This document shows positions 1,674 through 37,821 of a DNA stretch of 64,000 nt, piece by piece (positions within the stretch are counted from its first letter, which is position 1; every line of letters starts with the position of its first letter). The position numbers and the translations under genes are program-made. The stretch lies in the NCBI GenBank assembly GCA_902610845.1, contig CACLXJ010000002.1:18767-82766 (forward strand), in the 5' to 3' direction. Source of the stretch: an uncultured Alphaproteobacteria bacterium (lineage in GTDB: Bacteria > Pseudomonadota > Alphaproteobacteria > HIMB59 > GCA-002718135). The notes beneath the pieces are model-generated. The model did not search any database, had not been told where the DNA came from, and worked only from the letters and a program-made list of their open reading frames with translations.

Positions 1674-1674
1674 T

Positions 1675-2835: not shown

Positions 2836-2864
2836 TAAATTATCTTAGTATATTTAACAAATTA

Positions 2865-3726: not shown

Positions 3727-5052
3727 TTAAAAAATTATTTCTTTTAAATTTTTCTTCTTATATTTTTGATTTCTTATTTTATTTAAAATATTTTTTTTAC
3801 CTCCACACATTAAAAATTTATTATCAATATCTTCGTCTTTTAAAGGGTTATTTTTCCCTCCTTTAATATGTGATATTTTTTCAATCAATATACTTCCATC
3901 ATTCATTATTACTTTAATTATATCAGGATACTTAGGATCATAATCTTCAAAATTATTTGGCACTTTGTACGTGACTAGTTTAATTTTTCTAGTCATGTTT
4001 AAACTTTTTTTATTTTTAGAAATATTTAAACTACTTAAATCAAATTTACCATTAATGAGAGCAGTTGCTAAACAATAACTCAATGAAAATCTAGCTTCAG
4101 TAGAATTTTTAGGTATATGAAATTTTGATACTCTGAACCAAGGTTCTGGAAACTCAATTGTAATAGATTTAATATTTTTTTTTATAAAAATTTTTTTATT
4201 TAAAATTAACCCTCCTTGTATTACTCTTTGTGAATAACTACAAACTGGCCAAAACTTAATGAAATTTGGAAATTTAATTATTGCATTTCCTAGATCTGAT
4301 TCTTTAAAATTATTATTTAATTTTTTAGAAAATTTACTACCATACAATTCAATAAATCCTCTCTCAATATTCCAAATATTTTGATTGGCTGTCCCTCCAT
4401 TTTTTGCAAGTAAGGCTGACTGTACCCCTGCTTGAGAAGCAAACCCTACATGAAAAGCTTTTATATCTGTGCCGAATTGCTGTTTTAAACCAGATGAAAA
4501 ACTTGTTGCAATAGAAATTGCATTTGCCATTTGATCTGCATTTAATTTTAACACTTTAGATACTGCTGCAGCAGTTCCAATCACGCCTATTGTATTTGCT
4601 GAATGCCATCCTTTATAATAATGATCATAGCTAAGTGCTTGTCCTAATTTTATTATTAATTCATATCCTACTAACCATCCCTGATATGTTTCCTCAATTG
4701 AGATTTTTTTCATTTGAGCAATAGATATGAGTGCTGAAAAAATTGGCGCACTAGGATGAGATCCTGCAACGTATTCGTAATCATCAAAGTCTATAGACGC
4801 TGATCTGACTCCATGTAAAAAACATGCTGAAGAAATAGATAATTTTTTTCCTCCTCCAAAAATCTTAATATTTTTTGAATAATTATTTTCTAAGCAGTAT
4901 TTTAAGGCAACCTTTGATTGTTTTTCTTTAACACCTGATAATATACAAGCTAGGGTATCTATGAATGCATTTTCTGCTCGTTTATAAGTTGCCTTATTGA
5001 TATTAATTTTTTTTTGTGATGCCCAATTACAAAATTTTTTATGAAAACTCAT
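3727..5052 (-). CDS. MmgE/PrpD family protein (2-methylcitrate dehydratase superfamily, specific function unknown)
   Basis: 441 aa. Family-like segments AFIDTLACILSG and YKGWHSANTIGVIGTAAA. Its 5' end overlaps the stop of the upstream hydratase gene by 4 nt. Confidence 0.7.
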   Translation of the reverse strand: MSFHKKFCNWASQKKININKATYKRAENAFIDTLACILSGVKEKQSKVALKYCLENNYSKNIKIFGGGKKLSISSACFLHGVRSASIDFDDYEYVAGSHPSAPIFSALISIAQMKKISIEETYQGWLVGYELIIKLGQALSYDHYYKGWHSANTIGVIGTAAAVSKVLKLNADQMANAISIATSFSSGLKQQFGTDIKAFHVGFASQAGVQSALLAKNGGTANQNIWNIERGFIELYGSKFSKKLNNNFKESDLGNAIIKFPNFIKFWPVCSYSQRVIQGGLILNKKIFIKKNIKSITIEFPEPWFRVSKFHIPKNSTEARFSLSYCLATALINGKFDLSSLNISKNKKSLNMTRKIKLVTYKVPNNFEDYDPKYPDIIKVIMNDGSILIEKISHIKGGKNNPLKDEDIDNKFLMCGGKKNILNKIRNQKYKKKNLKEIIF

Positions 5053-5867
5053 TTTTTATATTTTGCAATCATTGTAATTTCTTTTTTTTCATTAAGAATT
5101 CTTCCAATAATTTCATCATCTTGATTTTCACCAATTTCTACAAAGAAATAATTGTTATATACAAGAGGTGCTGTAGCTCTATATTCAAAAGAATTGAACT
5201 CAATCTCATTTTTTCTTGCAAGATTTAAAAGATAAGTTGCTTGAAGAGGCGCATGGACTAATAACCCCATATGACCTTCAAAATTTTTGGTATAATCATT
5301 ATCATAATGAATCTTATGTCCATTAAAAGTTAAGGCAGAATATCTAAATAGCAAAGTTGATGAACTAAAAATTTCTACTTTATCAATTATCTTTAATTCA
5401 TCTTTTATTTTAGGAGTATTGTAGTTTTTATTTATTTTTTCTCTATAAACAGCAGTTTGATCTTCTGATATTATTAATTTATCTTTATTTAAATATTCAT
5501 GATTAATATTTACAAAACATAGATTGCCTGATCTACCTTCTTTAAATTCAATACTTAAAATTGTTGAATTTTTTTTAATTTCAGATCCAATTTCAAATTC
5601 ATCAAATATTTTTATTTTACCACCAGCCCACATTCTAATTTTATAAGGTAACTCAGGTAAAAAAATTCCTAATTTTGTATTTCCATCTTTGTCTAGATGG
5701 TTTATTGAAGTCACATCTGGGCATAAACATAAAAAAATTCCCTCAGGTACAGTTTGATCACTTAAACAGTTTTGATCGATTGTCTTTTTTAAATGATCAA
5801 CTAATCGAGGAGTAATCATATCACATCTTGAAATTTTCTTTCCAATCCAATCTTTGTACTTATTCAT
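5049..5867 (-). CDS. Hotdog-fold acyl-CoA hydratase, HTD2 / itaconyl-CoA / mesaconyl-C4-CoA hydratase-like
   Basis: 272 aa. C-terminal segment TFNGHKIHYDNDYTKNFEGHMGLLVHAPLQATYLL resembles the HTD2/Meh/Ich family. Translationally coupled to the PrpD-family gene. Confidence 0.6.
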   Translation of the reverse strand: MNKYKDWIGKKISRCDMITPRLVDHLKKTIDQNCLSDQTVPEGIFLCLCPDVTSINHLDKDGNTKLGIFLPELPYKIRMWAGGKIKIFDEFEIGSEIKKNSTILSIEFKEGRSGNLCFVNINHEYLNKDKLIISEDQTAVYREKINKNYNTPKIKDELKIIDKVEIFSSSTLLFRYSALTFNGHKIHYDNDYTKNFEGHMGLLVHAPLQATYLLNLARKNEIEFNSFEYRATAPLVYNNYFFVEIGENQDDEIIGRILNEKKEITMIAKYKK

Positions 5868-5927: not shown

Positions 5928-7565
5928 ATGAAAAAAACATTTGACTATATAATAGCAGGAGCCGGTTCTGCTGGCTGTACATTAGCCTCAAGATTATCTG
6001 AAAATAAAGATATAAAGGTATTACTAATAGAAGCAGGGGGGTCAGGAAAAAGTTTATTCACTCAAATGCCGGGTGGCAACGGATACATATTTGGAAATCC
6101 TAAATTTGATTGGGGTTTTGAATCAATGCCTCAACCTTCTTTAAATAACAGAAAAATTTTATACCCTAGAGGTAAAGGACTGGGAGGATCTTCTCTTTTA
6201 AACGGTATGATTTACATGAGAGGTGCCCCAGGTGATTTTAATAGGTGGAGACAAAAGGGTTTAGAAGGTTGGTCATATAATGATGTATTACCATATTTCA
6301 AAAGATCTGCTTCAGCTTTTCATAGAGAAAAAAATGAATATCACTCACATTCAGGCCCTTTAAAACTTACACCAGCTGGTAATTACAATTCTATCGATAA
6401 GGCATTTATTGATGCATGTGTTGAAGCAGGGGCAGAAATTAATAATGATTTTTATAATGGAAATCTAAATGGAGTAGGCAGATATGATGTTAAAGTATGG
6501 AATGGAAAAAGACAATCATCTGCAGAAGCTTATTTAAAATTTAAACCTAGCAACTTAACAATTTATAAAAATACATCTGTAATAAAAATTTTAATTGAGA
6601 AAAATAAAGCTAAAGGATTACTTTTATCAAATGGTAAAGTTTATGCATCATCAGAGGTAATATTATCTTTAGGAGCATTCGGTAGTCCTAAATGCTTAAT
6701 GTTATCAGGAATCGGACCAGAAGAACATTTAAAAGAAAAAAACATAGATTTATTAATTAATTTACCTGGAGTAGGTGAAAACCTTCACGATCATCCTGTT
6801 ATGCCAATGAATTGGGCTTTTCAAAATGACAGTTTAAGTTTCTCTAAATATCAAAGGATAGATAGAGCTATTATAGTTGGATTAAAATATATTTTATTTA
6901 AAAAGGGATTAGCCGCAGCTCCTTTTTGGTCAACAAATCTATTTCATGCAATAAGAGAAAAAGATATGCCTGAAATACAAGTATTCATGACACCCATGTG
7001 TTTTAAAGAGGAAAAAGATAACTGGTCTATGAGTTTAGACAATTTATTAAATTTTGGTTCTTTATTTTTTTCTAGAGGTAAAAAAGCTTTTCCGGGATTA
7101 CACTTTCAAATTAATTTATTAAGACCAAAAAGTACTGGAAATTTAAAACTTAAAAGCTCAAATCCTAATGATGAACTTAATATAAATCCTAATTGGTTCA
7201 ACGATCCATCTGATATGGAAGATATGATAGAGGGGATGAAGCATACAAGAGAAGTATTATCTAAGGCCAGTTTAGCTAAAATTGTTTCAGAAGAATTACT
7301 TCCAGGGAAAAAAATCAAAAGTGACCAAGATTTACAAGAGTCAGTTCGAAATCATGTTCAAACGGGTCATCATCCTGCATCTACTTGCGCAATGGGTTCA
7401 AGCAATAACAAAATGGCTGTACTTGATAATCAACTTAAGGTTAGAGGAATTGATAATCTTAGAGTAGTAGATGCTTCTTCATTCCCAGATATGATAAGTG
7501 GTAATATCAATGCATCTGTAATTATGTTAGCAGAAAAAGCATCAGATATGATATTAAAAAATTAA
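5928..7565 (+). CDS. GMC family FAD oxidoreductase (choline dehydrogenase-like)
   Basis: 545 aa. N-terminal FAD fold DYIIAGAGSAGCTLASRLSE; GMC signatures (PRGKGLGGSS, C-terminal HPASTCAMG). Confidence 0.85.
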   Translation: MKKTFDYIIAGAGSAGCTLASRLSENKDIKVLLIEAGGSGKSLFTQMPGGNGYIFGNPKFDWGFESMPQPSLNNRKILYPRGKGLGGSSLLNGMIYMRGAPGDFNRWRQKGLEGWSYNDVLPYFKRSASAFHREKNEYHSHSGPLKLTPAGNYNSIDKAFIDACVEAGAEINNDFYNGNLNGVGRYDVKVWNGKRQSSAEAYLKFKPSNLTIYKNTSVIKILIEKNKAKGLLLSNGKVYASSEVILSLGAFGSPKCLMLSGIGPEEHLKEKNIDLLINLPGVGENLHDHPVMPMNWAFQNDSLSFSKYQRIDRAIIVGLKYILFKKGLAAAPFWSTNLFHAIREKDMPEIQVFMTPMCFKEEKDNWSMSLDNLLNFGSLFFSRGKKAFPGLHFQINLLRPKSTGNLKLKSSNPNDELNINPNWFNDPSDMEDMIEGMKHTREVLSKASLAKIVSEELLPGKKIKSDQDLQESVRNHVQTGHHPASTCAMGSSNNKMAVLDNQLKVRGIDNLRVVDASSFPDMISGNINASVIMLAEKASDMILKN

Positions 7566-7614: not shown

Positions 7615-9087
7615 ATGTCTGAAATTCAAACCTACAAATTTTATGCAGGAAATAGATGGCATGAACCTTCTTCTGAAAAATATTTTGAAAGTGAGGATCC
7701 ATCTATAGGAAAAGTATGGGCAAAGATCCCTGATTGTAATGAAAAAGATATTAATCTTGCAGTAAGATCTGCTAAACATGCTTATTATGATGGACCTTAT
7801 AGTAAAATGCATCCAGCAGAAAGAGGGAGAATTTTAACTAGAATAGGAAATATTATAGCTAAAAATGCGGAACGTATTGGTAAAATAGAAACTAAAGACA
7901 ACGGCAAACTTCCAAAAAATATCACTCCTTCTTTAACTAGCTGGCAGACTGAGAGTTTTTATTATTATGCAGGCATGTGTGACAAGTATGAAGGTAGATT
8001 GATACCTTCAGAGGTTCCAAATATGCATAATTATTTAAAATGGGAACCTTTTGGAGTTGTCGCACTTATACTTCCATGGAACTCACCAATTGGAACATTA
8101 ATCTGGAAATTAGCGCCAGCAATAGCAGCAGGCAACACTGTTGTAATTAAACCTTCAGAAAGAGCATCATGCTCAACATTAGAGTTAATGAAAATTTTAG
8201 AAGAAGCTGACCTACCAGAAGGTTTGATTAATGTTGTTACTGGTTTTGGTCCTACCACCGGTGCACCTCTTATTGAACATAAAGATGTCAGGATGATAAG
8301 TTTTACAGGTGGAACAAAAGGGGGGAGTGCAGCAAGTTTAAGTGCATCCAAAAACGTTAAACCTATTATTATGGAGTTAGGAGGTAAATCACCACAAATT
8401 ATATTCAAAGATGCTGATTTAACTTTATCAGTAAATGGAGTTGTATCGGGTATCTTTCCAGTTTCAGGCCATAGTTGTATTTCAGGATCAAGAATATTAG
8501 TGCATAAAGATATAAAAGATAAATTTACTCATAATTTATTAGAAGTTGTTAAAAAGGCTAAAGTTGGACACCCCAATGATACAGCAACACAAATAGGACC
8601 TATAGCAAATAAAGAGCAATATGAATTTATTTTATCTAAAATAGAATCTGCAGAAAAAAGAGGTTTAAAATTACTAATTGATGGAAGAAAAGAACAAAAA
8701 TCTGAAGGGTACTATATTGGGCCAACTATTTTTGATAATGTTCCAAATGAAGATGATTTAGCTCAAAATGAAGTATTTGGACCTGTAGCCTCTATACAAT
8801 CTTGGGATAATGAAGATGAAGTAATTAAAATTGCAAACGATACTATTTATGGACTTGCAGCAGGTATTTGGACTAATGATACTAATAAAGCTATACGTTT
8901 AGCAGATAAGATAGAGGCTGGAACTGTTTATATAAATAATTATTTTAATGCTTCTACTCAATCTCCGGTTGGAGGCTTCAAGCAATCAGGATACGGTCGT
9001 GAAAATGGATGGGAGGGAATGCAAAGTTACATGCAGACCAAATCTACTTGGTTAGCTACCAATCCATATCAACCAAACCCATTTTAA
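7615..9087 (+). CDS. NAD(P)+-dependent aldehyde dehydrogenase (betaine-aldehyde dehydrogenase-like, follows GMC oxidase)
   Basis: 490 aa. MELGGKSPQIIF, Cys region SGHSCISGSR, NEVFGPV, GGFKQSGYGRE. Confidence 0.85.
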   Translation: MSEIQTYKFYAGNRWHEPSSEKYFESEDPSIGKVWAKIPDCNEKDINLAVRSAKHAYYDGPYSKMHPAERGRILTRIGNIIAKNAERIGKIETKDNGKLPKNITPSLTSWQTESFYYYAGMCDKYEGRLIPSEVPNMHNYLKWEPFGVVALILPWNSPIGTLIWKLAPAIAAGNTVVIKPSERASCSTLELMKILEEADLPEGLINVVTGFGPTTGAPLIEHKDVRMISFTGGTKGGSAASLSASKNVKPIIMELGGKSPQIIFKDADLTLSVNGVVSGIFPVSGHSCISGSRILVHKDIKDKFTHNLLEVVKKAKVGHPNDTATQIGPIANKEQYEFILSKIESAEKRGLKLLIDGRKEQKSEGYYIGPTIFDNVPNEDDLAQNEVFGPVASIQSWDNEDEVIKIANDTIYGLAAGIWTNDTNKAIRLADKIEAGTVYINNYFNASTQSPVGGFKQSGYGRENGWEGMQSYMQTKSTWLATNPYQPNPF

Positions 9088-9094
9088 GAAGTTA

Positions 9095-9886
9095 TTATTC
9101 TTTCCAGTTTGGTTCTCTTTTTTCTAAAAAAGCTTCAATACCTTCTTTGGAATCATCATGTAACATATTTTCCGTCATTACCTTTGAAGTAAAAGTATAG
9201 GCGTCTTCTAAATTCATATCTTTTTGTTTATAAAAAGCTTCTTTACCAATTTTAATAGTATTGAAAGATTTAGACGATATTTTTTTAGCAATTTGAAATA
9301 CATTTTCTTTTAAACTATCTTCTTCAAAGACATCATTTATTAAACCAATCCTTAATGCTTTATTTGCATCTATAAGATCTCCAGTGAGAAGCATTTCCAT
9401 TGCTTGCTTTTTACCTACAGTTCTTGATAATGGAACCATTGGTGTAGAACAAAATAATCCAATATTAACACCAGGAGTTGCATATTTTGCTCTGCTACTT
9501 GAGTAAGCTAAATCACAGCTAGAAATTAACTGACAGCCTGCTGCAGTAGCGATACCATTAACCATAGCTATAACTGGTTTATTATTTTTATTAATTTTAA
9601 GCATAAGTTGAGAGCACATTTGAAATATTTTTTTAAAATAGCTTTCACCTTTATCATTTTGTAATCTTTGTGAATTTAAATCTTTTAAATTATGTCCTGC
9701 ACAAAAAATATTACCTTTTGATGATAAAATAATTACTTTTACACCATTATCTTTATCAGCAATGTCTAGCGCTGATGTTAATTCATTGATCATGTTTTCG
9801 CTTAAAGTATTTTGTTTTTTCTGGTCATTAAGAATGATATTAAAAATATTATTATTTTTTTCGGTTAATATTAGATTAAAATTCAT
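9095..9886 (-). CDS. Enoyl-CoA hydratase/isomerase (crotonase) family protein
   Basis: 263 aa. Crotonase segments FCAGHNLKDL and VNGIATAAGCQL. Last gene of a tightly packed minus-strand operon. Confidence 0.85.
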   Translation of the reverse strand: MNFNLILTEKNNNIFNIILNDQKKQNTLSENMINELTSALDIADKDNGVKVIILSSKGNIFCAGHNLKDLNSQRLQNDKGESYFKKIFQMCSQLMLKINKNNKPVIAMVNGIATAAGCQLISSCDLAYSSSRAKYATPGVNIGLFCSTPMVPLSRTVGKKQAMEMLLTGDLIDANKALRIGLINDVFEEDSLKENVFQIAKKISSKSFNTIKIGKEAFYKQKDMNLEDAYTFTSKVMTENMLHDDSKEGIEAFLEKREPNWKE

Positions 9887-10333
9887 TTAATTGATTTGAA
9901 TTTCAACATCTTTTGATAGGGAATTAGCAATAAAACAATACTTATGTGATCTCTCTTTCATCTTTTTCATTTCTTCATCAGAAATAGTAAAATTATCTTC
10001 AAATACTATAGCTGGATTTAGCTCTATTTTATTGACGTACATTCTTCCCTCTGTATTTTTTCCTAAATACGATATTGCTTTATCTTTGTAATTAATAATT
10101 GGCCATTTCATTTTTGCAGCTAAAGCTAAAAATGTCATCATAAAACAACTACTTACAGCTGCAGCGAGTTTTTGCTCTGGATTAATATTAGTTTCGCTTC
10201 CTCCATAATCTGGAGATGATCCCGCATCAATAGATACATTTTCGTTAAGCATTACTGTGTGATCAGTTAAGTATTTTCCAAATTCGAGTTTTTGATCTCC
10301 TAATTCCCACTTTATTTCGATTGAATGACTCAT
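9887..10333 (-). CDS. OsmC/Ohr family protein (thiol peroxidase-like)
   Basis: ORF track gives 164 aa. I prefer the start at MSHSIEIKW (10333), which leaves a 1-nt gap to the upstream stop. Two family-typical Cys (SSCFMM, KYCFIA). Confidence 0.8.
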   Translation of the reverse strand: MSHSIEIKWELGDQKLEFGKYLTDHTVMLNENVSIDAGSSPDYGGSETNINPEQKLAAAVSSCFMMTFLALAAKMKWPIINYKDKAISYLGKNTEGRMYVNKIELNPAIVFEDNFTISDEEMKKMKERSHKYCFIANSLSKDVEIQIN

Positions 10334-10334
10334 T

Positions 10335-11456
10335 TTAAGAATAATTAAAAGGTAGTGAGCACACTTTACCTTTTCTCTCAATATTGTCTGGTGTTAATAC
10401 GATAACATCCTGCCCATCATTCCAATAATCTCTATCAACCATTGATAGCCCAATATTGGTTTTTAAAAATGGTGAATAAATACCAGAGGTGATATTACCA
10501 ATTTGAAATCTATTTTTTGAGTATACAGGAAAAGGTATTGTGCATGGAGGAGTCGGGAACCCATCAAAAGTAATTCCTTTTATTTTTTTTTCTATTCCCT
10601 TTTTTAATATTTTTTTTAGTGCATTTTTTCCAATGAAATCATGAGATAAATTTTTACAATAATTATCAAATCCACATTCAATTGGATTATTTTCTAAAGT
10701 AAATTCATTACCATAGGACAATAAACCACCTTCTATTCTATCAATTAAATTTGGACATCCAGGTGAAATATTAAAATCCTTTCCTGTTTCCCATATTGTT
10801 TCCCAAAGTTTTTTTCCTAAACCAAAACCTTTCAGATAAATCTCAAAACCATCTTGTTTGCTATAACCTGATCTTGCAATTATCTGTTTTGTTCCTTCAA
10901 ATTCAAAAAAAGAAAAATGAAAGAATTTTAATTTTTTAATTTTTTGACCAAATATAGAAGACATTAATTCTTCAGATTTTGGCCCTTGAATTGCTAAGGG
11001 GTAAACATCAGGCTCAATAATATTAACTTTAAAATTTCTTCCTACCGCTAATCCTTTTGCCCATAGTAGAACATCTGAATCTGCAACTGATAGCCAATAT
11101 TTATTTTCACTTAATTTTAAAAGAACAGGATCATTAATCATCCCTGCATTTTCATCTATCATTGGATAATAATAACACTTACCAATTGGCATGTGCTTAA
11201 TAGATCTAGGCGACATAAGCTCAACTAATTTTTCAGAATCAACCCCTTCTATTTGAACTTGCCTTTGACAAGATACATCCCATATCTGCGCATTTTGAGA
11301 TAAGTGCCAATAATCTTCTTCTACTGTTGCTTTATATGATTTTGGAAGAAGCATATGATTTACAACGGTAAAACCACTTACACCAGCTTCAATTACTTTT
11401 TCTGTATAAGGAGTTCTCCTAATACGTCTCGACATGTTTAATCCTGAATTACTCAT
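10335..11456 (-). CDS. GcvT-family THF-dependent aminomethyltransferase, DMSP demethylase (DmdA)-like
   Basis: About 373 aa from MSNSGLNMSRRIRRTPYT. The SRRIRRTP, NHMLLP, WDVSCQRQV, EPDVYPLAIQGP, ARSGYSKQDGFEIY and GLLSYGNE segments match what I remember of the DmdA clade. The family call is firm; the DmdA assignment is tentative. Confidence 0.8.
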   Translation of the reverse strand: MSNSGLNMSRRIRRTPYTEKVIEAGVSGFTVVNHMLLPKSYKATVEEDYWHLSQNAQIWDVSCQRQVQIEGVDSEKLVELMSPRSIKHMPIGKCYYYPMIDENAGMINDPVLLKLSENKYWLSVADSDVLLWAKGLAVGRNFKVNIIEPDVYPLAIQGPKSEELMSSIFGQKIKKLKFFHFSFFEFEGTKQIIARSGYSKQDGFEIYLKGFGLGKKLWETIWETGKDFNISPGCPNLIDRIEGGLLSYGNEFTLENNPIECGFDNYCKNLSHDFIGKNALKKILKKGIEKKIKGITFDGFPTPPCTIPFPVYSKNRFQIGNITSGIYSPFLKTNIGLSMVDRDYWNDGQDVIVLTPDNIERKGKVCSLPFNYS

Positions 11457-11457
11457 T

Positions 11458-11793
11458 TTATTTAGACCACCAAATTGAATAACCATTTGGTGAAATGATT
11501 AATGGTATATGATATTTTCTTTCTGAATCTTTCATTTTAAATTTAACACTTATTGAACTAATTATTTCACTAGTATTTCTAAAATACTTACCAGAATTAA
11601 TTATCATTTCATAATCACTTTCACAATCTTCTTTCGTTAATTCAAATTCTTTAAGCATTCTACCAGAGCTATCTGTTTTATCTTCTAGAAATACAACTTT
11701 GTTATCATTATTTGATTTATAAATTATAATTTCTACATCGCTTGCATGCGTACCATCTATGGAGTTTAGTAAATGTGTAGAAAAAATAGCCAT
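11458..11793 (-). CDS. Transthyretin-like / 5-hydroxyisourate hydrolase family protein with atypical C-terminus
   Basis: 111 aa. STHLLNSIDGTHA N-terminus, TDSSGRM, YHIPLIISPNGYS. Ends IWWSK instead of the usual YRGS. Confidence 0.75.
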   Translation of the reverse strand: MAIFSTHLLNSIDGTHASDVEIIIYKSNNDNKVVFLEDKTDSSGRMLKEFELTKEDCESDYEMIINSGKYFRNTSEIISSISVKFKMKDSERKYHIPLIISPNGYSIWWSK

Positions 11794-11796
11794 AAT

Positions 11797-13539
11797 TTAT
11801 TCTATAGAAGCTTTATCTCTTTTATCGCTGACTGCAGCAACTATTGGACTAATAACACCTTTTGCCTTAACATTAACACATGCAGTTTTACCACTTTCTA
11901 ACGCTCTTTTTAATGCAGGACCTAAATCTTCTCTTTTAGTAACTAATTCTCCATACCCTCCAAAACCTTCAAAAATAGAATGAAATGGAATATCTCTGAA
12001 ATCAGTTGCAAAGTGTTTCCCACTTTCAAATAACCTTTCTTGTTGTTGAGAAATACAGTCAAGACCTCCGTTATTATCTATAACTACAACAATGGGCTTT
12101 TTTTCTTGAAATGCAGCTTCAATTGATAATCCGCCAGATAAAAATGCACCATCTCCACTTATTAAAACAACATTAGATTTAGGATTAAGATTTTTTGCTG
12201 ATACTGCAAAAGGAACTCCAACACCTAACATACTGAAAGTGCCTGGATGTAATATTCCTCCAAGTTTTTTACCTTTTGATCCAGCAATATTAATTGCAAT
12301 CTCGGACCAGAAATGGGTATTACCACCATCAATTACTAACCAATCATTTTCAGTTAATAACTCTTGAACATCTAAAGCTAATTGAAGAGGATGAATTTTT
12401 CCACCATTTTTTTTGGCATCTTCAGTTTCTTCATTTAAGTCATCTAATGTTTTATCAATCCAATTTTTTTTCTCTTTTTTATTCTTATCAAACCATTCAT
12501 CATTTAATTTCCATTTACTGTTTTTCTTTAATTCTATAAGTTTATCCAAAAAGACTCCAGGATCACAAAGTAAGTTAATATCTGCAGCTCTATTCAATTC
12601 TATTTCTTCATGCGATCCATTAATACAAACAAGCTTAGTACTTTTTGGAAAAAGTGGAGGATTGCCAAAATTCATTTGATTATCAAGACGTGCACCAATC
12701 ATAAGAACCAAATCTGTTTCATTGAGGGCCATTTTCGATGGAGGATATTGATGAATATCTGCTAGACCCATGTATGTATCTGCCTCCTCTCCTAAAAGCT
12801 TTTGATGGTATGGTATATTAAATATTGGAATGTTTAATTCAAAGCCAGCTTGCTCTAATTTTTTTTCTGCATTAGACCACCAAACACCATGCCCTCCAAT
12901 AAAAACTGGTTTTTGAGCATTAATTGCTAGATTAAATATTTCATTTAAACTCTCAGGATCGGGCCAAGCTTTGGCTAATGGTTTTTTTTGATGAGTAAAA
13001 GGTCTTTCTTCTAAACCTGCATCATCAGCAAATGATGAAAACATAATATCTACAGGTACACTTAAATGTACTGCTCCTGGATAGCCATTTGTTGCAATTC
13101 TATATGCTCTATCTACAAACTCTCTTATTCTGTTGCCTTCTGTTATACTTGCACTGTATTTTGTTAACGGTGCTGCAATAGATACATCATCTATTTCCTT
13201 AAAACCGCCTGCTCCTTGTCTTTTTAAGCTACTTGATCCAGTTATAAAAATAACAGGTGATCTTTCACCCCAAGCTTCCATCATTGATGGTACTGCATTT
13301 GCAAAACCTTCTGGTCCTACAATGCAAACAGAAGGTTTTCTTAATATTCTAGTATGGCCATCAGCTAAATGACCAGCAATTTGTTCATGAGGACAATTAA
13401 TTACATTAATTTGACACTCCATAAATCCTTCAAGTGCTGGGTTACAAAAACCTCCAGAAAGCGTAAAAACATTATCAATACCTTTGTCTCTAAGAGCTCT
13501 TGCAACTAATGCCCCACCTCTAATCTTTTTGTCTCCCAT
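11797..13539 (-). CDS. Thiamine-diphosphate-dependent enzyme (acetolactate synthase / oxalyl-CoA decarboxylase / 2-hydroxyacyl-CoA lyase superfamily)
   Basis: 580 aa. Catalytic Glu region CPHEQIAGHLADGH; ThDP-binding motif GDGAFLSGGLSIEAAFQEKKPIVVVIDNNGG. Confidence 0.85.
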   Translation of the reverse strand: MGDKKIRGGALVARALRDKGIDNVFTLSGGFCNPALEGFMECQINVINCPHEQIAGHLADGHTRILRKPSVCIVGPEGFANAVPSMMEAWGERSPVIFITGSSSLKRQGAGGFKEIDDVSIAAPLTKYSASITEGNRIREFVDRAYRIATNGYPGAVHLSVPVDIMFSSFADDAGLEERPFTHQKKPLAKAWPDPESLNEIFNLAINAQKPVFIGGHGVWWSNAEKKLEQAGFELNIPIFNIPYHQKLLGEEADTYMGLADIHQYPPSKMALNETDLVLMIGARLDNQMNFGNPPLFPKSTKLVCINGSHEEIELNRAADINLLCDPGVFLDKLIELKKNSKWKLNDEWFDKNKKEKKNWIDKTLDDLNEETEDAKKNGGKIHPLQLALDVQELLTENDWLVIDGGNTHFWSEIAINIAGSKGKKLGGILHPGTFSMLGVGVPFAVSAKNLNPKSNVVLISGDGAFLSGGLSIEAAFQEKKPIVVVIDNNGGLDCISQQQERLFESGKHFATDFRDIPFHSIFEGFGGYGELVTKREDLGPALKRALESGKTACVNVKAKGVISPIVAAVSDKRDKASIE

Positions 13540-13540
13540 C

Positions 13541-14704
13541 TTAATACTTTATATCCTTAAAAAATTTCTCTGCTATAATTTTTTTATCAACTTCATTTAT
13601 ATCGGTTAATCCTACTAAGCCAAGATTTGTACTTAACTCCTCTTTAATTAAGTTTATAATTCTTCGAAGACCTCTTGAACCATCTGCGCCAATGGCATAC
13701 ATTAGAGGTCTGCCAAACATAACAAAATCAGCTCCCAGAGCTAATGCACGTAAAATATCACTACCACTTCTAATACCACTATCAAAAAGTATTGGAAAAT
13801 CGTCTCCCAAAGATTTTCGAATTAATGGTAAAGCATTAATAGAAGCAGTAGCACTATCTAATTGCCTACCACCATGATTAGATACTTGAATTGCATCAGC
13901 ACCAGCTTCTTTAATTTTTAAAGCATCTTCAGAATTCATTACACCTTTGATTATTAATTTTCCTTTCCATGTGTCTCTAACCCTTTTTAGAGTATTCCAA
14001 TCAGTTGCTCCTCTACTTTCTTTTCGTCGAAAAATTTGATCACCACTTTTAGAAGTAACATAATTCATTGGTTTTGGTGCTCCTTTAAATAAAGTTGTTA
14101 AACTCCATTGAGGATGAAGTGCAAAATCTAAAAATTGTTTTGGACCTATTTTAAATGGATAGCCAAAACCATTTCTGTCGTCTCTTGCTCTTCTTGAAAG
14201 AATAGGCACATCAACAGTAAGAATTAAAACTTTGTATCCAATATTTTCTGCTCTTTTTAATAATTCCATAATAAATTCTTCACTTTGAAAAATATATATT
14301 TGCATCCATGAATGACCTTTTGAAAAAGTAAACATATCTTCAAGTGTAGTACTGGAAGCCATTGAAACACAGGTTGGAACATTATTATGAGCACTTTCTT
14401 TAGCTATCATTTTATCTGCTTCAGGCCATGAAAGATTTGTCATTCCCATTGGAGCAAATCCAAATGGATAATTAAAATCAAAATCAAATATTTTTTTATT
14501 TAATTTTCTATTTTCAACATTTCTAAAAACCTTTGGCTCTAATCTAATTTGATCTAAAGCTGTACTATTAATTTCAGCAAGTTTATCATCTCCAGATGCT
14601 CCATCAATAAAATCAAAGACTAATTTAGGTAATCGTCTTTTAGATAATTTTATTGCATCATCAATTGTATGAATTTTAGTACTAGGTTTAATAAAATCAT
14701 TCAT
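13541..14704 (-). CDS. FMN-dependent alpha-hydroxy-acid oxidase/dehydrogenase (LldD/glycolate oxidase family)
   Basis: 387 aa. Classic VSNHGGRQLD motif and DSGIRSGSDI FMN-phosphate segment. Confidence 0.85.
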   Translation of the reverse strand: MNDFIKPSTKIHTIDDAIKLSKRRLPKLVFDFIDGASGDDKLAEINSTALDQIRLEPKVFRNVENRKLNKKIFDFDFNYPFGFAPMGMTNLSWPEADKMIAKESAHNNVPTCVSMASSTTLEDMFTFSKGHSWMQIYIFQSEEFIMELLKRAENIGYKVLILTVDVPILSRRARDDRNGFGYPFKIGPKQFLDFALHPQWSLTTLFKGAPKPMNYVTSKSGDQIFRRKESRGATDWNTLKRVRDTWKGKLIIKGVMNSEDALKIKEAGADAIQVSNHGGRQLDSATASINALPLIRKSLGDDFPILFDSGIRSGSDILRALALGADFVMFGRPLMYAIGADGSRGLRRIINLIKEELSTNLGLVGLTDINEVDKKIIAEKFFKDIKY

Positions 14705-14752: not shown

Positions 14753-15982
14753 TTAGTTTTTTGAAACACCCTTCCAAGGTATTGGAGAAGATGGAATGTC
14801 TTGTTTTATACCTCTTTGTATTTCACCTTTCTCGTCATACATTGGTAATGTGCAAATTTCTCCTTTATGGATCTTACCATCATCACAATTGATATCTACT
14901 ATTGTGCCAGGACCATATTCTTTACCATCCATGTGAACTATAGCAACACCACAAACTTGGAATGGTGACCATGTACTTGAAGTGACTATTCCAACTTTTT
15001 TATTATCAATTAAAATTTCAGAGTCAACTAATGCAAAGCTATTTTCAACTCTCATTCCCCAAGTCAAGCAGTCTTTGTTTGAATTAAGTAAAAATTCTCT
15101 TCCAATAAAATCTCCTTTAGTAAAATCAATAAACTTTCCAAGCCCAACAGAAAATGGACTTCTTTCATTTGTAAAATCTCTTCCTGCAGATAAAAGACCA
15201 GCTTCAATTCTCCTACATCTAAATCCAGGAGAAGCCGTTAAAATCATTCCCATTTCCTTTCCCTTACTTAGAATTAAATCTCCTATTTTTTTTGCATTAT
15301 TATTTGGTCTTAAATAAAGTTCCCAGCCTAATTCATTTGTAAAACCTGTTCTGCTAACTATTACTTTTTCTGAAGCTATTGAAGTTTCAATCCAATCAAA
15401 ATAATTAAATTTTTCTTTTATTGGATAATCAACTAATGCATTTAACAGTTTTAAAGATTTGGGACCTTGTATCTGACTCACCCAAACATCAGGATCTGAT
15501 ATTTGAACATCTAAATTTTTTGAATGAGCTTTATACCAACTATATAAATGTCCATCACCTTGCGCAAACCAAAATTTATTTTCATTTAATTTTAATAATA
15601 ATCCGTCAGAAATCATTCCACCATCATGATAACATGCAAATTGATATGAGCATCTTCCAGTTTTAACTTTTGAAATATCTCTAGGGAAGATTTGTTGTAG
15701 TAAATTTTTAGCATCTGGACCAGAAATTTCATATGGATGTTCACCTGTATGTCTCAAAATTATTTCTTGTCTTGCTTTCCAATACATTTCATCAGCTGTG
15801 GCATGAGATAATTTTTCGAGTGTAAATCTTCCGTCAGCATAATTGGTATATTCAGGATTTAAAGGTATTTCTTGGTAAGTTAATGGATGAATTTTCATTG
15901 GTCTCGCCAAATCGAGAGATCTACCATTTTCTTTAATTACTGGTTTAACAACAAATCTAAAATTATTTATTAAATTATCCAT
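14753..15982 (-). CDS. GcvT-family aminomethyltransferase/demethylase, substrate unknown
   Basis: 409 aa. Folate-binding GcvT-type core (DVWVSQIQGPKS, SRTGFTNELGWELY, AGLLSAGRD). Distinct N-terminus from the DmdA-like paralog. Confidence 0.75.
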   Translation of the reverse strand: MDNLINNFRFVVKPVIKENGRSLDLARPMKIHPLTYQEIPLNPEYTNYADGRFTLEKLSHATADEMYWKARQEIILRHTGEHPYEISGPDAKNLLQQIFPRDISKVKTGRCSYQFACYHDGGMISDGLLLKLNENKFWFAQGDGHLYSWYKAHSKNLDVQISDPDVWVSQIQGPKSLKLLNALVDYPIKEKFNYFDWIETSIASEKVIVSRTGFTNELGWELYLRPNNNAKKIGDLILSKGKEMGMILTASPGFRCRRIEAGLLSAGRDFTNERSPFSVGLGKFIDFTKGDFIGREFLLNSNKDCLTWGMRVENSFALVDSEILIDNKKVGIVTSSTWSPFQVCGVAIVHMDGKEYGPGTIVDINCDDGKIHKGEICTLPMYDEKGEIQRGIKQDIPSSPIPWKGVSKN

Positions 15983-16024: not shown

Positions 16025-16948
16025 TTAAAATAAGTCTTTTATAGCTTCAATATGTCGTGGTTTAACCTCACAACATCCACCAATTAATGTAGCTCCACTT
16101 TTAAAAGTAGAAGAAACGAAATTTTTATATTTATCAATTGTATATTCTTCTTTTCTTGTCCCAAGTAATTCTATTGGGTTAAGGTATTCAGCTTGTCCTT
16201 CAAAACCATCCGGTTCAAAATTCTCTTCATGACTTGTAGGTAATTTTTTAAATAAATTCATTTTGTATCCAAATGGAAGTTTTTGTTTCTCCAAAAATGG
16301 TAAACTTTTTTCAACAATTTCAGGTGATACACAGGCAGAAACTATACCACAACAATCGTATTGATTAATTATTTCAAATAATTGATTTAGTGTTTCACCC
16401 GATGGAAGTTTAGCATCATAGCGTAAATGAACTCCTATTAGAGCTTTTTTATTAAAACTTTTAATTGCTTCAAGAGCAATTTGTATTTCTTTAATTGAAC
16501 TCAAAACGTCTAAATAAAAAATATCAACATATTCGTTAAGATTTTTAGCAACATTATAAAAATCCTGATGCATAATCTGATCAGTTTCTAATTGTAAAGG
16601 TGAATAAGTATTACTTTGATTTGGTAACGAACCAGCAACTATAATTTTTTTATCAAATTCATCTGCAGATTTTCTTGCAATTTGCCCTGCAGATTTTATG
16701 GCATAATCTAATGAGTTATTTAAATTATATTTCCCCAAAAGTCTTCTTCTAGCACTGAAATTTGCTGTAACAATTATTTCGGAACCAGCTTTTATAAAAT
16801 TTTTGTGCATTTCTAGAACCATAGAATGATAACTTTTATCTAAAAGTGCTTGGGCAGACCAAAGATCTCCACTTGTTTGTAATCCCATTTCAAGAAGGGT
16901 TTGTCCAGAACCTCCATCAAGGATATATTTTTTATTTTTATGAAACAA
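16025..16948 (-). CDS. Homocysteine S-methyltransferase family protein (BHMT-like)
   Basis: 307 aa. N-terminal LDGGSGQTL, zinc Cys positions (SACV ... GGCCEVKPRHIEAI). Confidence 0.8.
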   Translation of the reverse strand: MFHKNKKYILDGGSGQTLLEMGLQTSGDLWSAQALLDKSYHSMVLEMHKNFIKAGSEIIVTANFSARRRLLGKYNLNNSLDYAIKSAGQIARKSADEFDKKIIVAGSLPNQSNTYSPLQLETDQIMHQDFYNVAKNLNEYVDIFYLDVLSSIKEIQIALEAIKSFNKKALIGVHLRYDAKLPSGETLNQLFEIINQYDCCGIVSACVSPEIVEKSLPFLEKQKLPFGYKMNLFKKLPTSHEENFEPDGFEGQAEYLNPIELLGTRKEEYTIDKYKNFVSSTFKSGATLIGGCCEVKPRHIEAIKDLF

Positions 16949-17010: not shown

Positions 17011-18639
17011 TTATGCAAACCACCAACGTTCAGATAATTTGTTACCATCACTTTCCCAGTTACCAGCAACATCTTCATCGTGAGCAAGTTTTTTAGAACC
17101 CGCACCAACATATTGGTTAAATGCATAAACAATTGCACCACCATCGTAGTTACAAAGAGCTTGTGCTTCCCAGTACATTGACTTTCTTTTTTCTGCATCT
17201 AGCTCAGATCTAGCTGATCTAACTAGTTCGTTAAAGCGAACAGTTGAATCAGTTTGAACTAAATTACCCCAAGCGGCTTCATTCCACTCAGTGTCATCAG
17301 TAAATGCTGCAGACCACATCATATCTTCCGTAGGTCTTCCACCCCAAGAACTCATACTGAAACCTTTGGTATTCCAAACGTTACTCCAGTAACCATCTTC
17401 AGGTTCTTTTTTAACTCGAAGATCGATACCACATTCTTGAGCAGATGCTGCTATCAAGTTAGTTGCATCTGTACAGCCTGCATAAGGAACCTCAGAAGTA
17501 CTAATTTCAATTGGTCCACTTATTCCTGATTTTTTCCAGTGATAAGAAGCTTTATCAGCATCAAACTCTCTTTGCTCTAAAGCACCATTGTGATATGGGT
17601 GAGCGGTAGAGATCGGATGATCATTACCAACAGTACCATATCCAAGCATGATTTTATCAACAATTTCCTGCCTTTTGATTGCAAACTTCAACGCCATACG
17701 AACATCAAAGTTATCATACGGTGGAACATTTAATCTCATTGGCGCTGTATAGTGAGCGTAACCAGAAGCTGCTGTGATTTCTACACTAGGATTTCTAGTT
17801 AATAGATTTGCAGTTCTAAGATCAACACCATTCATCCAATCAATTTCACCATTTAATAAAGCTGCTTGTCTTGTTGCAGGATCATTAATTCCAATGACTT
17901 CAACTGAATCAAAGTGTGCAACACCATCACCTTTAAAATAATTTGGATTTCTTTTTCCAAATTTTGCACCAACACCTGGATTGAATTCATCCATAATATA
18001 TGGACCTGTTCCAATTGTAGATTGAGCATCAACAACTCCATCTTTTGTTGGTTTAATCATGATATGATAGTCTGTAGTTATTGCAGGCCAATCGGCATTA
18101 GCTCCTTTTAGCTTAAAAATAACTCTGTCATTTCCATCAGCTGAAATTGTATCAATTTGAGATAACAATCCACCTGCTGCAGAAGCAGTATCTGGATTCA
18201 TATGATACTGATAGTTGAGTACAACATCTTCTGCAGTCATTGATTTACCATTATGAAATTCAATTCCTTTACGAAGATTATATACCCAAGTTTGAGCATC
18301 ATCTGATTCAATTGACTCAGCGAGTTCTCCAACAATAGTATGATCTGAATCAACTACTGTTAGACAGTTCTGATAAGACCACGCAGTAGCTTGCATAAAT
18401 GAGCTCTGATAAGTTGCTGGATCTAGGGTATCAGTTGCATCTGCTGCACTATTACCCCATCTTAAATGTCCACCTTTTTTAGGTGTAGCTGCAACTGCCT
18501 TATCTGCTAAAGATAATGCAATTGGAAGCGTAACCCCAGTAGCAAGGACAGACATCATGAACTGTCTTCTATCAATAAGCCCTTTTATAAGCTTTGAAGA
18601 CTGTTCCTCAATGTATTTGTCTATTTTCTTATTTTTCAT
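17011..18639 (-). CDS. ABC transporter substrate-binding protein, family 5 (peptide/opine/nickel type), Tat signal peptide
   Basis: Start chosen at MKNKKIDKY (18639), preceded by AAGGGAGGACAA. Twin-arginine signal DRRQFMMSVLATGVTLPIALSLADKAVAA. About 542 aa. Confidence 0.9.
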   Translation of the reverse strand: MKNKKIDKYIEEQSSKLIKGLIDRRQFMMSVLATGVTLPIALSLADKAVAATPKKGGHLRWGNSAADATDTLDPATYQSSFMQATAWSYQNCLTVVDSDHTIVGELAESIESDDAQTWVYNLRKGIEFHNGKSMTAEDVVLNYQYHMNPDTASAAGGLLSQIDTISADGNDRVIFKLKGANADWPAITTDYHIMIKPTKDGVVDAQSTIGTGPYIMDEFNPGVGAKFGKRNPNYFKGDGVAHFDSVEVIGINDPATRQAALLNGEIDWMNGVDLRTANLLTRNPSVEITAASGYAHYTAPMRLNVPPYDNFDVRMALKFAIKRQEIVDKIMLGYGTVGNDHPISTAHPYHNGALEQREFDADKASYHWKKSGISGPIEISTSEVPYAGCTDATNLIAASAQECGIDLRVKKEPEDGYWSNVWNTKGFSMSSWGGRPTEDMMWSAAFTDDTEWNEAAWGNLVQTDSTVRFNELVRSARSELDAEKRKSMYWEAQALCNYDGGAIVYAFNQYVGAGSKKLAHDEDVAGNWESDGNKLSERWWFA

Positions 18640-18656
18640 TTGTCCTCCCTTATAAT

Positions 18657-18683
18657 TGAACAAAAACCTAAGATTTTTGTTCA
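18657..18683. promoter_or_regulatory. Perfect 10-bp inverted repeat in the divergent promoter/5' leader region (candidate operator or leader hairpin)
   Basis: TGAACAAAAA-CCTAAGA-TTTTTGTTCA, located 18-44 nt upstream of the binding-protein ATG. Confidence 0.4.
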
Positions 18684-18876
18684 TAATTTCTAGAAATTTA
18701 ACAAAAAACAAACTTAAGTTAATATATAAAAACATATATAACGTTTTAATTCAACGTATAAATTATTAATTTTAGCTTGTATGTTGGTCTAATTTAGACA
18801 AAACTCTAAAAATTAAAATTGTATCTTCAAGGAGGGCAACATTACTAGAATTCATCCAATATTTAGAACAATTTTA

Positions 18877-32536: not shown

Positions 32537-32576
32537 TTTATTTTATTTAATGTAATTTTTATTTAGGAGGGGAATA

Positions 32577-33623: not shown

Positions 33624-33639
33624 AAAATATACTTCATTT

Positions 33640-33667
33640 CAGCACTAATATATTAATATTAGTGCTG
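33640..33667 (+). terminator. Perfect 12-bp hairpin between binding-protein gene and ATPase gene (attenuator or mRNA-stabilising structure; weak U-tract)
   Basis: CAGCACTAATAT-ATTA-ATATTAGTGCTG read directly. It lies 16 nt after the stop and 7 nt before the next ATG. Confidence 0.5.
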
Positions 33668-33674
33668 ATTTAAG

Positions 33675-37771: not shown

Positions 37772-37821
37772 ATTGAGACTGTTTGTTTACTAATTATTGT
37801 TAAACCATTAAAGATAAGTAA

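Follow-up and report, generated by a model that had tools for sequence, protein, structure and literature searches.

We analyzed a 64,000-nucleotide stretch of DNA from an uncultured alphaproteobacterium (the window; GC content, ~30%), which is close to the single-cell genomes named "uncultured Alphaproteobacteria AG-9xx." Six open reading frames (ORFs) lie co-directionally on its minus strand from 9095 to 14704 in the ORF list and encode, in order, an FMN-dependent dehydrogenase (FMN_dh), a thiamine diphosphate (ThDP) enzyme (99% identical in single-cell locus L003), a transthyretin (TTR)-like protein, a methyltransferase resembling DmdA, the dimethylsulfoniopropionate (DMSP) demethylase, an OsmC-like protein, and a crotonase. 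A preliminary description of this DNA had treated these genes as one operon with spacers of 0 to 3 nt, which the ORF coordinates bear out: with adjusted starts, the spacers are 1, 3, 1, 1, and 0 nt. Gene order and spacing were repeated in 33 close relatives. Comparison across lineages revealed that the unit is composite, with the ThDP, TTR-like, and DmdA-like genes as its invariant core.

The longest ORF of the DmdA-like gene begins at 11486, but the ATG at 11456 is the likelier start because it matches position 2 of the DmdA profile and the 373-amino-acid calls in relatives. The likeliest start of the OsmC-like gene is the ATG at 10333. Upstream, 48 nt separate the FMN_dh gene from a gene for a second GcvT-family protein (GcvT2), and 42 nt separate the latter from a BHMT-type methyltransferase gene, as earlier described. 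On the plus strand, a convergent aldehyde dehydrogenase (ALDH) gene ends 7 nt short of the crotonase stop codon. The earlier family calls of all genes were borne out by Pfam and NCBIfam, and the motifs VSNHGGRQLD, PHEQ, GDGAF...NNGG, and twin-arginine DRRQFM were all found in the sequences.

Conservation and spread of the module

When the ThDP protein was scanned against one genome per GTDB species, at least 561 species representatives carried a relative, with a DmdA-like gene alongside in every examined locus that extended far enough. All 80 loci that we kept were of the SAR11 type, and the order GcvT2-FMN_dh-ThDP-TTR-DmdA-like was present in 80/80 wherever the contig permitted. These loci followed two architectures. 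Type A, in 33 loci of the window's clade, contains genes for a family-5 solute-binding protein (SBP5), the BHMT-type protein, GcvT2, FMN_dh, the ThDP enzyme, the TTR-like protein, the DmdA-like protein, OsmC, and an enoyl-CoA hydratase (ECH)-family crotonase, with the convergent ALDH gene. Type B, in 47 Pelagibacteraceae loci including those of the cultured Pelagibacter sp. Uisw_090, HIMB1709, and HIMB1623, has a divergent SBP5 ATP-binding cassette (ABC) system, GcvT2, an S51 peptidase, FMN_dh, the ThDP enzyme, the TTR-like protein, the DmdA-like protein, a thiolase, and often IlvE. Identities between types A and B were 80 to 87% for the ThDP enzyme, 66 to 73% for FMN_dh, 62 to 65% for GcvT2, 61 to 70% for the DmdA-like protein, and 48 to 64% for the TTR-like protein.

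A search of representatives at 50% identity returned one tight ThDP family, then relatives of 48% and 35% identity in unrelated contexts, and then generic matches; relative to the window protein, identity stepped from 68 to 48 to 35% and straight to the generic level of about 30%. The genome scan and this sharp drop had suggested a SAR11-specific family, which was ruled out by the occurrence of the module on contigs of 38 to 70% GC and in SAR116. The 68%-identical representative of the family, from a contig of 38% GC, is encoded in the order SDR-ThDP-TTR-DmdA-like-BKACE, where SDR is a short-chain dehydrogenase/reductase and BKACE is a beta-keto acid cleavage enzyme. We scanned metagenomes with this representative and clustered the neighboring ORFs, which gave 56 loci with enough downstream sequence. 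Contigs bearing the module ranged from 31 to 70% GC, and one group (L148) belongs to SAR116/Puniceispirillaceae. A TTR gene followed the ThDP gene in 56/56 of these loci, a count that includes three missed by the ORF picker (L167, checked by translation, and two sister loci that share a spurious antisense ORF), and a DmdA-like gene was present in 52/56. Upstream of the ThDP gene, 40 of 52 loci had FMN_dh; 5 had an unrelated NAD-dependent SDR instead (the SDR occupies the FMN_dh position in L091 to L099), and 7 had a divergent gene.

These locus counts identify the ThDP/TTR-like/DmdA-like triad as an invariant unit and the dehydrogenase as an interchangeable first gene. The adjacency of the triad, with spacers of 1 to 20 nt, was kept from 31 to 70% GC while the other neighbors changed. 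Thus, the co-conservation proposed for the six genes was recovered, but the unit that it defines is the triad, in most cases preceded by a dehydrogenase gene. An OsmC gene behind the DmdA-like gene is confined to the window's own clade (type A), and the crotonase is an occasional partner. Between the window and loci of 38 to 70% GC, the ThDP enzyme was 66 to 75% identical, the TTR-like protein 30 to 44%, and the DmdA-like protein 51 to 61%. Literature searches on this gene combination, on HTCC1062 locus tags in the dmdA area, and on DmdA-like proteins returned nothing describing the module, in agreement with the earlier statement that this gene set has no characterized pathway. The three-gene module is thus previously undescribed, and all of its parts belong to known superfamilies.

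We also observed departures from the common pattern. Four loci, L152 and L154 (~32% GC), L123, and L139, carry FMN_dh-ThDP-TTR without an adjacent DmdA-like gene, with a thiolase gene directly after the TTR gene in L152 and L154, so the ThDP-TTR pair may function without the methyltransferase. In L109, L115, L148, and L160 (54 to 70% GC), the ThDP enzyme is 70 to 75% identical to that of the window while its operon partners are at 30 to 60%, implying either strong constraint or lateral spread. The nearest outgroup ThDP protein (P0123, 48% identity; L083 to L085) lies in the order SDR-ThDP-4HBT thioesterase-split transketolase/E1-like with LacI regulators; a dehydrogenase, a ThDP enzyme, and a CoA-thioester enzyme therefore exist together without a TTR or DmdA-like partner.

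Placement of the DmdA-like protein

Against the DmdA equivalog model NF009133 (cutoff, 410 bits), the window protein scored 527 bits, the Uisw_090 copy (L047) 564 bits, and DmdA of Pelagibacter ubique HTCC1062 637 bits, and PGAP names the module's protein "dimethylsulfoniopropionate demethylase." The module-linked copies in 80/80 genome loci were 45 to 50% identical to HTCC1062 DmdA (PDB 3TFH). All of them formed one clade in a neighbor-joining tree that had HTCC1062 DmdA as its characterized reference, sister to the canonical clade with that enzyme; the paralog may lie within or beyond the span of proven DmdAs, which also takes in the ratified Roseobacter and SAR92 enzymes. Proteins 83 to 94% identical to HTCC1062 DmdA were abundant in metagenomes. 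In three long loci encoding canonical-type proteins (P0279, 89%; P0343, 84%), dmdC-dmdB-mhpC-dmdA lie between leuB and asd-sdhCDAB, and none of the three has FMN, ThDP, or TTR genes near this operon. According to a 2026 preprint, the canonical block is conserved in at least 121 of 135 complete Pelagibacter genomes, which have 1 to 3 dmdA copies each (10.64898/2026.04.03.716430). We found no dmdB or dmdC homologs in the window and no dmdB, dmdC, dmdD, or ddd genes beside the module among the annotated neighbor families of any lineage.

On the 45 to 50% identity, the tree, and the different operon of the canonical gene, we rejected the reading that the module protein is canonical DmdA. By sequence, it is a paralog from a clade sister to the characterized DMSP demethylase and a predicted tetrahydrofolate (THF)-dependent methyltransferase. 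The earlier designation as a DmdA-like demethylase therefore holds at the level of the family, but the protein belongs to a distinct paralog clade. In one Pelagibacterales metagenome-assembled genome (L039, 13270 to 18734), the end of a type-B cluster is convergent with leuB-leuD-leuC-L19-trmD, the site where canonical dmdC-dmdB-mhpC-dmdA normally follows leuB, which suggests positional replacement in some genomes.

The module resembles the DMSP demethylation pathway of P. ubique HTCC1062 and Ruegeria pomeroyi (DmdA plus DmdB, DmdC, and DmdD/AcuH) in its GcvT-fold THF-dependent methyltransferase above the DmdA cutoff and, in the window, in the crotonase-fold gene after the DmdA-like gene. Unlike that pathway, the module has no dmdB or dmdC, its demethylase is from the sister clade, and its crotonase is of the ECHDC3 type rather than the DmdD/AcuH type. 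Moreover, its constant ThDP and TTR-like partners have no place in the known pathway.

One alternative is that the DmdA-like protein is a second genuine DMSP demethylase and that the FMN, ThDP, and TTR-like genes are unrelated co-transcribed neighbors. The score above the equivalog cutoff, the PGAP annotation, and the several dmdA copies reported per Pelagibacter genome would fit such an isozyme. Furthermore, several experimentally ratified DmdAs share only 35 to 40% identity with P. ubique DmdA (PMC10746254) versus 48% for the paralog, so that the identity level alone is compatible with DMSP activity. Nonetheless, we consider an isozyme distinctly unlikely. The close adjacency of the triad persists from 31 to 70% GC against a background of changing neighbors, the paralog's own clade tracks the module, streamlined SAR11 genomes seldom retain unrelated genes in operons this tight, and there are documented cases of DmdA-like proteins that lack DMSP activity (SPO1648 and the SAR92 H455 protein).

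FMN dehydrogenase and ThDP enzyme

The best NCBIfam match of the FMN enzyme was LldD (PRK11197; 272 bits against a cutoff of 376); NF033901 gave 227 bits against 550. The enzyme scored 236 bits against full-length (S)-mandelate dehydrogenase (MDH; PDB 6bfg) versus 198 bits against a chimera without the membrane segment, and it aligned without gaps to 6bfg through the membrane-binding segment (residues ~177 to 215), with the Gly81 equivalent kept. Equivalents of the catalytic residues Tyr131, Arg165, Lys, His274, and Arg277 are retained. The equivalent of the carboxylate-binding Tyr26 of MDH (Tyr24 of glycolate oxidase) is Phe, within D-F-[IV]-D-G-A, in 56/56 SAR11 orthologs matched. The alignment, Gly81, the scores, and the Tyr26-to-Phe change together suggest a membrane-type dehydrogenase with an altered substrate pocket, which probably passes electrons to quinone instead of making H2O2. 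This enzyme had been described as an oxidase or dehydrogenase, with the suggestion that OsmC could deal with any peroxide it made. Its assignment to the membrane-bound mandelate/L-lactate dehydrogenase type, together with the clade-specific occurrence of OsmC, weakens that suggestion.

The ThDP enzyme scored far below the cutoffs of acetolactate synthase (ALS; PRK05858, 266 bits against 587; TIGR00118, 225 against 538), 2-hydroxyacyl-CoA lyase (HACL; NF058623, 238 against 600), oxalyl-CoA decarboxylase (Oxc; PRK09259, 203 against 557; TIGR03254, 186 against 739), and Xsc (186 against 620). Its best PDB matches were HACL/S and Oxc (188 bits) and benzaldehyde lyase (BAL; 160 bits). A G-G-F-K-E motif occurs where HACL/S 8vzc has G-A-F-Q-E; the active-site motif of Oxc is Y-E. 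No ALS small-subunit gene is adjacent to the ThDP gene. Identities as Xsc, glyoxylate carboligase, an IolD-type enzyme, or ALS were rejected for scores far below cutoff or partial alignment. We classify the protein, on profile and structure matches, as an orphan of the ALS/HACL/Oxc/BAL superfamily outside every curated family. The FMN and ThDP enzymes thus both fall outside curated orthologous groups of known function, as had been anticipated.

The pair recalls the mandelate pathway (MdlB, MdlC, and MdlD) in having a membrane-type FMN dehydrogenase gene directly upstream of a ThDP gene with an ALDH gene nearby, and (S)-mandelate dehydrogenase ranks with the FMN enzyme's best structural relatives. 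In contrast to that pathway, the ThDP enzyme has closer relatives in HACL/Oxc/BAL and ALS than in benzoylformate decarboxylase; Phe stands in for Tyr26 in the FMN enzyme, which is replaced by an SDR in one lineage and absent in another; and a THF methyltransferase and a TTR-like protein accompany the pair. The three-domain layout, cofactor Glu (HEQ), and GDG...NN motif of the ThDP enzyme are as in HACL/S, Oxc, and benzaldehyde lyase. It differs from HACL/S and Oxc in scores far below cutoff, the F-K-E motif, and a conserved core without a CoA ligase or transferase.

TTR-like, OsmC-like, and crotonase proteins

The TTR-like protein scored 71 bits against the HIUase model TIGR02962 (cutoff, 87.45) and has no signal peptide. 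It resembles E. coli HiuH and B. subtilis PucM in fold, length, and the His/Arg/His positions, with the equivalents of HiuH His7, Arg45, and His95 at least 95% conserved. Among 52 unique module-linked sequences, H, G-x-H, D-x-G-R, Y-H-x-P, and S-x-W were conserved in at least 95%, and S-x-W-[WILV]-S replaces the terminal Y-R-G-S of HIUases. The window protein ends in ...GYSIWWSK, and the terminal WWS was kept in SAR11, L091, and one locus of 60% GC. A further difference from HIUase is that the gene adjoins a ThDP gene, with no urate oxidase or OHCU decarboxylase neighbors seen. The absence of YRGS, the subthreshold score, and the lack of uricase and OHCU decarboxylase among the neighbors seen led us to reject purine catabolism and a true HIUase and to place the protein in a distinct subfamily of the fold.

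The OsmC-like protein has two cysteines (SSCF and KYCF) and scored far below the subfamily cutoffs (e.g., Ohr, 34.5 bits against 88.85; OsmC, 29 against 85.8). The usual context of the second OsmC cysteine is C-P; here it is K-Y-C-F. Given its restriction to the window's clade, we regard OsmC as a passenger specific to that lineage, and scavenging of peroxide from the flavoenzyme has become a less likely role for it.

The crotonase matched the human ECHDC3 structure 2vx2 with 240 bits over residues 12 to 262 and has the motifs AAGCQL and TPGVNIG in common with human ECHDC3. Rat ECH has its catalytic Glu144 and Glu164 in GGGCEL and QPEILLG, and a by-eye alignment to these motifs would put Gln and Gly at the two positions in the crotonase. 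Homologs of 40% identity lie directly after the DmdA-like gene in L125 and L130 (56 to 57% GC), and more distant homologs occur in the L096 and L100 clusters. The earlier crotonase call was thus right as to fold. More exactly, sequence comparison identifies the protein as an ECHDC3 ortholog, apparently without both hydratase glutamates, and as a recurrent but not universal partner. A role as methylthioacryloyl-CoA hydratase in the manner of DmdD/AcuH is unlikely for an ECHDC3 ortholog apparently lacking the catalytic Glu pair. We know of no reaction assigned to human mitochondrial ECHDC3, and the bacterial operon might offer clues to the class of substrate that it uses.

Onium and C1-folate genes as variable neighbors

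GcvT2 is conserved beside the module in both SAR11 architectures; its best NCBIfam scores were for the Tdm C-terminal domain (177 bits) and DmdA (176 bits), and no equivalog was assigned. In SAR116, an MttB-family gene takes the place of GcvT2, and an S51 peptidase and a LysR regulator are also present. The BHMT-type gene precedes the module in loci of the window's clade and in a few type-B loci. Both SAR11 types, SAR116, and a lineage of 40% GC have an SBP5-type ABC system flanking the module. The convergent position of the ALDH gene was conserved only in the window's clade. In L092 to L111, the module's operon contains genes for BKACE and a carnitine dehydrogenase::thioesterase (CDH::TE) fusion, to which L100 to L111 add a GATR-type AraC/DJ-1 regulator, an acyl-CoA dehydrogenase (ACAD), an ADP-forming acyl-CoA synthetase, and an ECH. 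In L096, soxBDAG-fhs-folD lie directly upstream of the module and the BKACE and CDH::TE genes downstream, all in one operon. In loci of 60 to 70% GC, an MTHFR-like gene (a weak match, 24 bits) and PurU come right after the DmdA-like gene.

The C1-folate neighbors support a methyl-to-THF reaction, and the betaine and carnitine neighbors make an N-onium substrate possible rather than an S-onium one. The most frequent variable neighbors of the module are those of the carnitine-to-glycine-betaine module and of betaine demethylation (BHMT, MttB family, and SoxBDAG), but none of the three core proteins belongs to those pathways, and the association is positional only. The preliminary description had suggested an N- or S-methylated substrate; the cross-lineage context favors quaternary amines (betaine or carnitine) at least as strongly as sulfonium compounds. 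Homarine catabolism (homABCDER) was rejected; it uses other families, namely, an FAD protein, a partner protein, a peptidase, and an ALDH (PMC13236597).

In a quaternary-amine explanation, the module would be a branch of carnitine, gamma-butyrobetaine, or glycine-betaine catabolism, and the paralog would transfer to THF a methyl group of a betaine or of a protonated dimethylamino acid, which is isosteric with dimethylsulfonium. Glycine betaine, dimethylglycine, and beta-alanine betaine are candidates, and the enzyme would complement BHMT, MttB, or GcvT2. Several contexts point this way: L092 to L099 share an operon with BKACE and CDH::TE, with L096 downstream of soxBDAG-fhs-folD; L100 to L111 lie beside the GATR-type (CdhR/GbdR-like) regulator, BKACE, CDH::TE, ACAD, acyl-CoA synthetase, and ECH genes; and MttB is within the SAR116 cluster. 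In the window, the BHMT-type gene is 1.3 kb upstream, and a 3HCDH-BKACE-4HBT set, a GBBH-like gene, two GMC oxidoreductases, and two ALDHs lie within 20 kb. Even so, we think this explanation unlikely. The paralog passes the curated DMSP-demethylase model, the roles of the ThDP enzyme, TTR-like protein, and FMN_dh are left unexplained, and adjacency is weak evidence here because osmolyte islands often mix N- and S-onium genes. In addition, to our knowledge, no GcvT-family enzyme takes a methyl group directly from an ammonium nitrogen.

A speculative scheme starts from 4-dimethylsulfonio-2-hydroxybutyrate (DMSHB), the substrate floated in the preliminary description: FMN_dh would make the 2-oxo acid, the ThDP enzyme would decarboxylate this to DMSP-aldehyde, and ALDH would form DMSP for demethylation by the DmdA paralog. 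In a variant, the paralog would first demethylate DMSHB to 4-methylthio-2-hydroxybutyrate, which is then oxidized to 4-methylthio-2-oxobutyrate and transaminated to methionine. The module links a DmdA-family enzyme to the partners that this scheme calls for, a 2-hydroxy-acid dehydrogenase and a ThDP enzyme; loci of the window's clade have the ALDH gene next to the unit, and in many type-B loci the cluster is followed by IlvE. SAR11 requires reduced sulfur (PMC5069961), and the decarboxylation step is unassigned in most organisms, with only DsyD, a ureidoglycolate-lyase-like domain, known (PMC11306096). Against DMSHB, however, no dmdB, dmdC, dmdD, or ddd gene is near the module in any lineage looked at; the module occurs on contigs of 57 to 70% GC with C1-folate genes and in carnitine/betaine operons; the ALDH is clade specific; the TTR-like protein has no role in the scheme; and the Tyr-to-Phe change removes the carboxylate-binding residue of classical 2-hydroxy-acid enzymes. 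On balance, we hold the DMSHB scheme to be quite improbable.

By analogy to carnitine, gonyol (5-dimethylsulfonio-3-hydroxypentanoate) might be converted by the CDH-like enzyme, BKACE, and thioesterase to DMSP and acetoacetate, with the paralog demethylating the DMSP. The BKACE and 3HCDH::thioesterase genes are in the module's operon in L092 to L111, and in the window they lie 13 kb away. However, the regulator and the CDH::TE fusion have the layout typical of carnitine genes, as in the P. aeruginosa cdh system. Gonyol gives no role to the conserved ThDP, TTR, and FMN_dh partners, and most loci are without the BKACE/CDH set, so that we would be very surprised if it were the substrate, although it is described as a phytoplankton sulfonium interfering with DMSP cycling (PMC7221440).

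A proposed catabolic route and its significance

The reading that we favor, tentatively and at close to even chances, is that this old and widely distributed module and its usual dehydrogenase form a catabolic route for a methylated onium hydroxy-acid, separate from canonical DmdABCD. The onium could be sulfur based (a dimethylsulfonium) or nitrogen based (a quaternary or protonated tertiary ammonium). We infer the catalytic steps, their order, and the nature of the substrate on top of the observed synteny, paralog status, active-site changes, and neighbors. The substrate would be taken up via the neighboring family-5 ABC system. The membrane-type FMN dehydrogenase would then oxidize the hydroxyl beside the carboxylate to an oxo group, with electrons passing to the respiratory chain, as suggested by its FMN family and by the unrelated NAD-dependent SDR that stands in its place in another lineage. 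Judging by its superfamily only, the ThDP enzyme may decarboxylate or cleave beside the carbonyl. By homology, the DmdA paralog would move an onium methyl group to THF to give 5-methyl-THF, a step supported by the MetF-like, FolD, Fhs, and PurU genes right beside the module in other lineages. The TTR-like protein, with its retained His/Arg/His, may perform a hydrolytic step, and the ECHDC3-type crotonase may process a CoA-level or beta-keto product, a role that a thiolase, or BKACE with CDH::TE, may fill elsewhere.

Several points weigh against this onium hydroxy-acid route. The step order is guesswork, and the ThDP and TTR-like roles are tied to no specific chemistry. An adjacent dehydrogenase is missing from 7/52 loci, so a hydroxy-to-oxo step is not obligatory, and L123, L139, L152, and L154 keep ThDP-TTR without an adjacent DmdA-like gene. 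The paralog may simply be a DMSP demethylase, given its 48% identity to P. ubique DmdA against 35 to 40% for ratified enzymes (PMC10746254). Neighbor associations inside SAR11 partly reflect shared ancestry, and the MTHFR-like match is weak (24 bits).

A bolder form of the onium hydroxy-acid route, which we find possible but doubtful, is that the triad marks a so far unrecognized and very widespread pathway of SAR11, SAR116, and many aquatic bacteria of higher GC for an abundant methylated non-DMSP onium compound (e.g., DMSHB, gonyol, beta-alanine betaine, or a carnitine or betaine derivative), with a new ThDP-dependent C-C cleavage and a transthyretin-fold hydrolase that would bind the onium in an aromatic Trp-Trp pocket. 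A sizeable share of the genes counted as dmdA in ocean metagenomes and in annotated genomes would then not encode a DMSP demethylase. The abundance of dmdA is the standard proxy for marine DMSP diverted from climate-active dimethyl sulfide, and SAR11 supplies most counts. Annotation probably counts the module's DmdA-like gene as ordinary DMSP demethylation at present, perhaps wrongly. If the module acts on something other than DMSP, gene counts overstate the sulfur flux derived from them, and the module is a so far unrecognized major osmolyte sink in the most abundant marine heterotrophs. If its substrate is DMSP or a precursor, the linked enzymes define new organosulfur steps and could include missing DMSHB-processing chemistry. 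The module thus matters for its abundance in SAR11 and SAR116, its annotation as a DMSP demethylase, and its cultured carriers. With Pelagibacter Uisw_090, HIMB1623, and HIMB1709 in culture, direct tests come within reach for three orphan enzyme subfamilies that have conserved active-site changes, among them the ECHDC3-type crotonase with its uncharacterized human ortholog.

Gene map and other features of the window

The genes of the unit and its immediate neighbors are collected in Table 1. The ALDH encoded downstream is a possible accessory gene.

Table 1. Genes of the six-gene unit and its flanks in the window
Feature	Position	Strand	Details
FMN_dh	13541-14704	-	387 aa; PF01070, 394 bits; usual upstream partner of the core
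ThDP enzyme, three TPP domains	11797-13539	-	580 aa; most conserved gene of the module
Transthyretin/HIUase-fold protein	11458-11793	-	111 aa; PF00576, 70 bits
DmdA-like methyltransferase	10335-11456	-	GCV_T and GCV_T_C; NF009133, 527 bits
OsmC/Ohr-fold protein	9887-10333	-	148 aa from its ATG; PF02566, 57 bits
Crotonase-fold protein (ECH_1)	9095-9886	-	263 aa; NF006008 (PRK08139), 366 bits against cutoff of 313
GcvT2, second GcvT-family protein	14753-15982	-	PF01571 and PF08669
Homocysteine S-methyltransferase, BHMT/MmuM type	16025-16948	-	PF02574, 142 bits; below NCBIfam cutoffs
Family-5 solute-binding protein, twin-arginine DRRQFM	17011-18735	-	PF00496, 224 bits
ABC permeases and ATPase of the family-5 system	18877-22356	+	
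Aldehyde dehydrogenase	7615-9087	+	PF00171, 529 bits; BADH TIGR01804, 460 bits against cutoff of 669

Other genes that point to onium metabolism were observed farther from the unit. Between 25336 and 30106, an ScfR-type regulator (HTH, M78 peptidase, and PF09856) is encoded with 3HCDH (27784 to 28704), BKACE (28706 to 29596), and 4HBT (29639 to 30106), and 3HCDH-BKACE-4HBT is the gene set of the carnitine-to-glycine-betaine route. The window BKACE and dehydrogenase are 50 to 55% and 42 to 44% identical, respectively, to the copies in module operons of other lineages. At 243 to 3725, an ALDH (243 to 1673), a GBBH-like TauD-family dioxygenase with GBBH_N (1675 to 2835), and an EamA transporter (2865 to 3725) suggest gamma-butyrobetaine or trimethylammonio-aldehyde metabolism. 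Two GMC (choline-dehydrogenase-like) oxidoreductases, at 5928 to 7565 and 22376 to 25017, keep their synteny across the window's clade; ahead of the second come a conserved 88-amino-acid ORF without Pfam assignment and an SDR gene, directly downstream of the ABC transporter. At 3727 to 5867, an MmgE/PrpD-family gene is translationally coupled to one for a 272-amino-acid protein without a Pfam match, and a PrpD-ALDH-SDR set also occurs near the 48%-identical ThDP relative P0123. A polyamine block (30699 to 39144) encodes agmatine deiminase (PAD_porph), N-carbamoylputrescine amidase (CN_hydrolase), a PotF-type ABC system, a glutamine-synthetase-like PuuA-like protein, and a PuuB/OrdL-like DAO protein.

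A promoter and terminator consensus scan gave counts at or below shuffled expectation and is uninformative in DNA of 30% GC, and the Rfam scan detected no riboswitch or other RNA control element in the region of the unit. The sole Rfam match in the 64 kb was a tRNA gene (53000 to 53081), which is followed by recA (56041 to 57153) and alaS (57239 to 59911).

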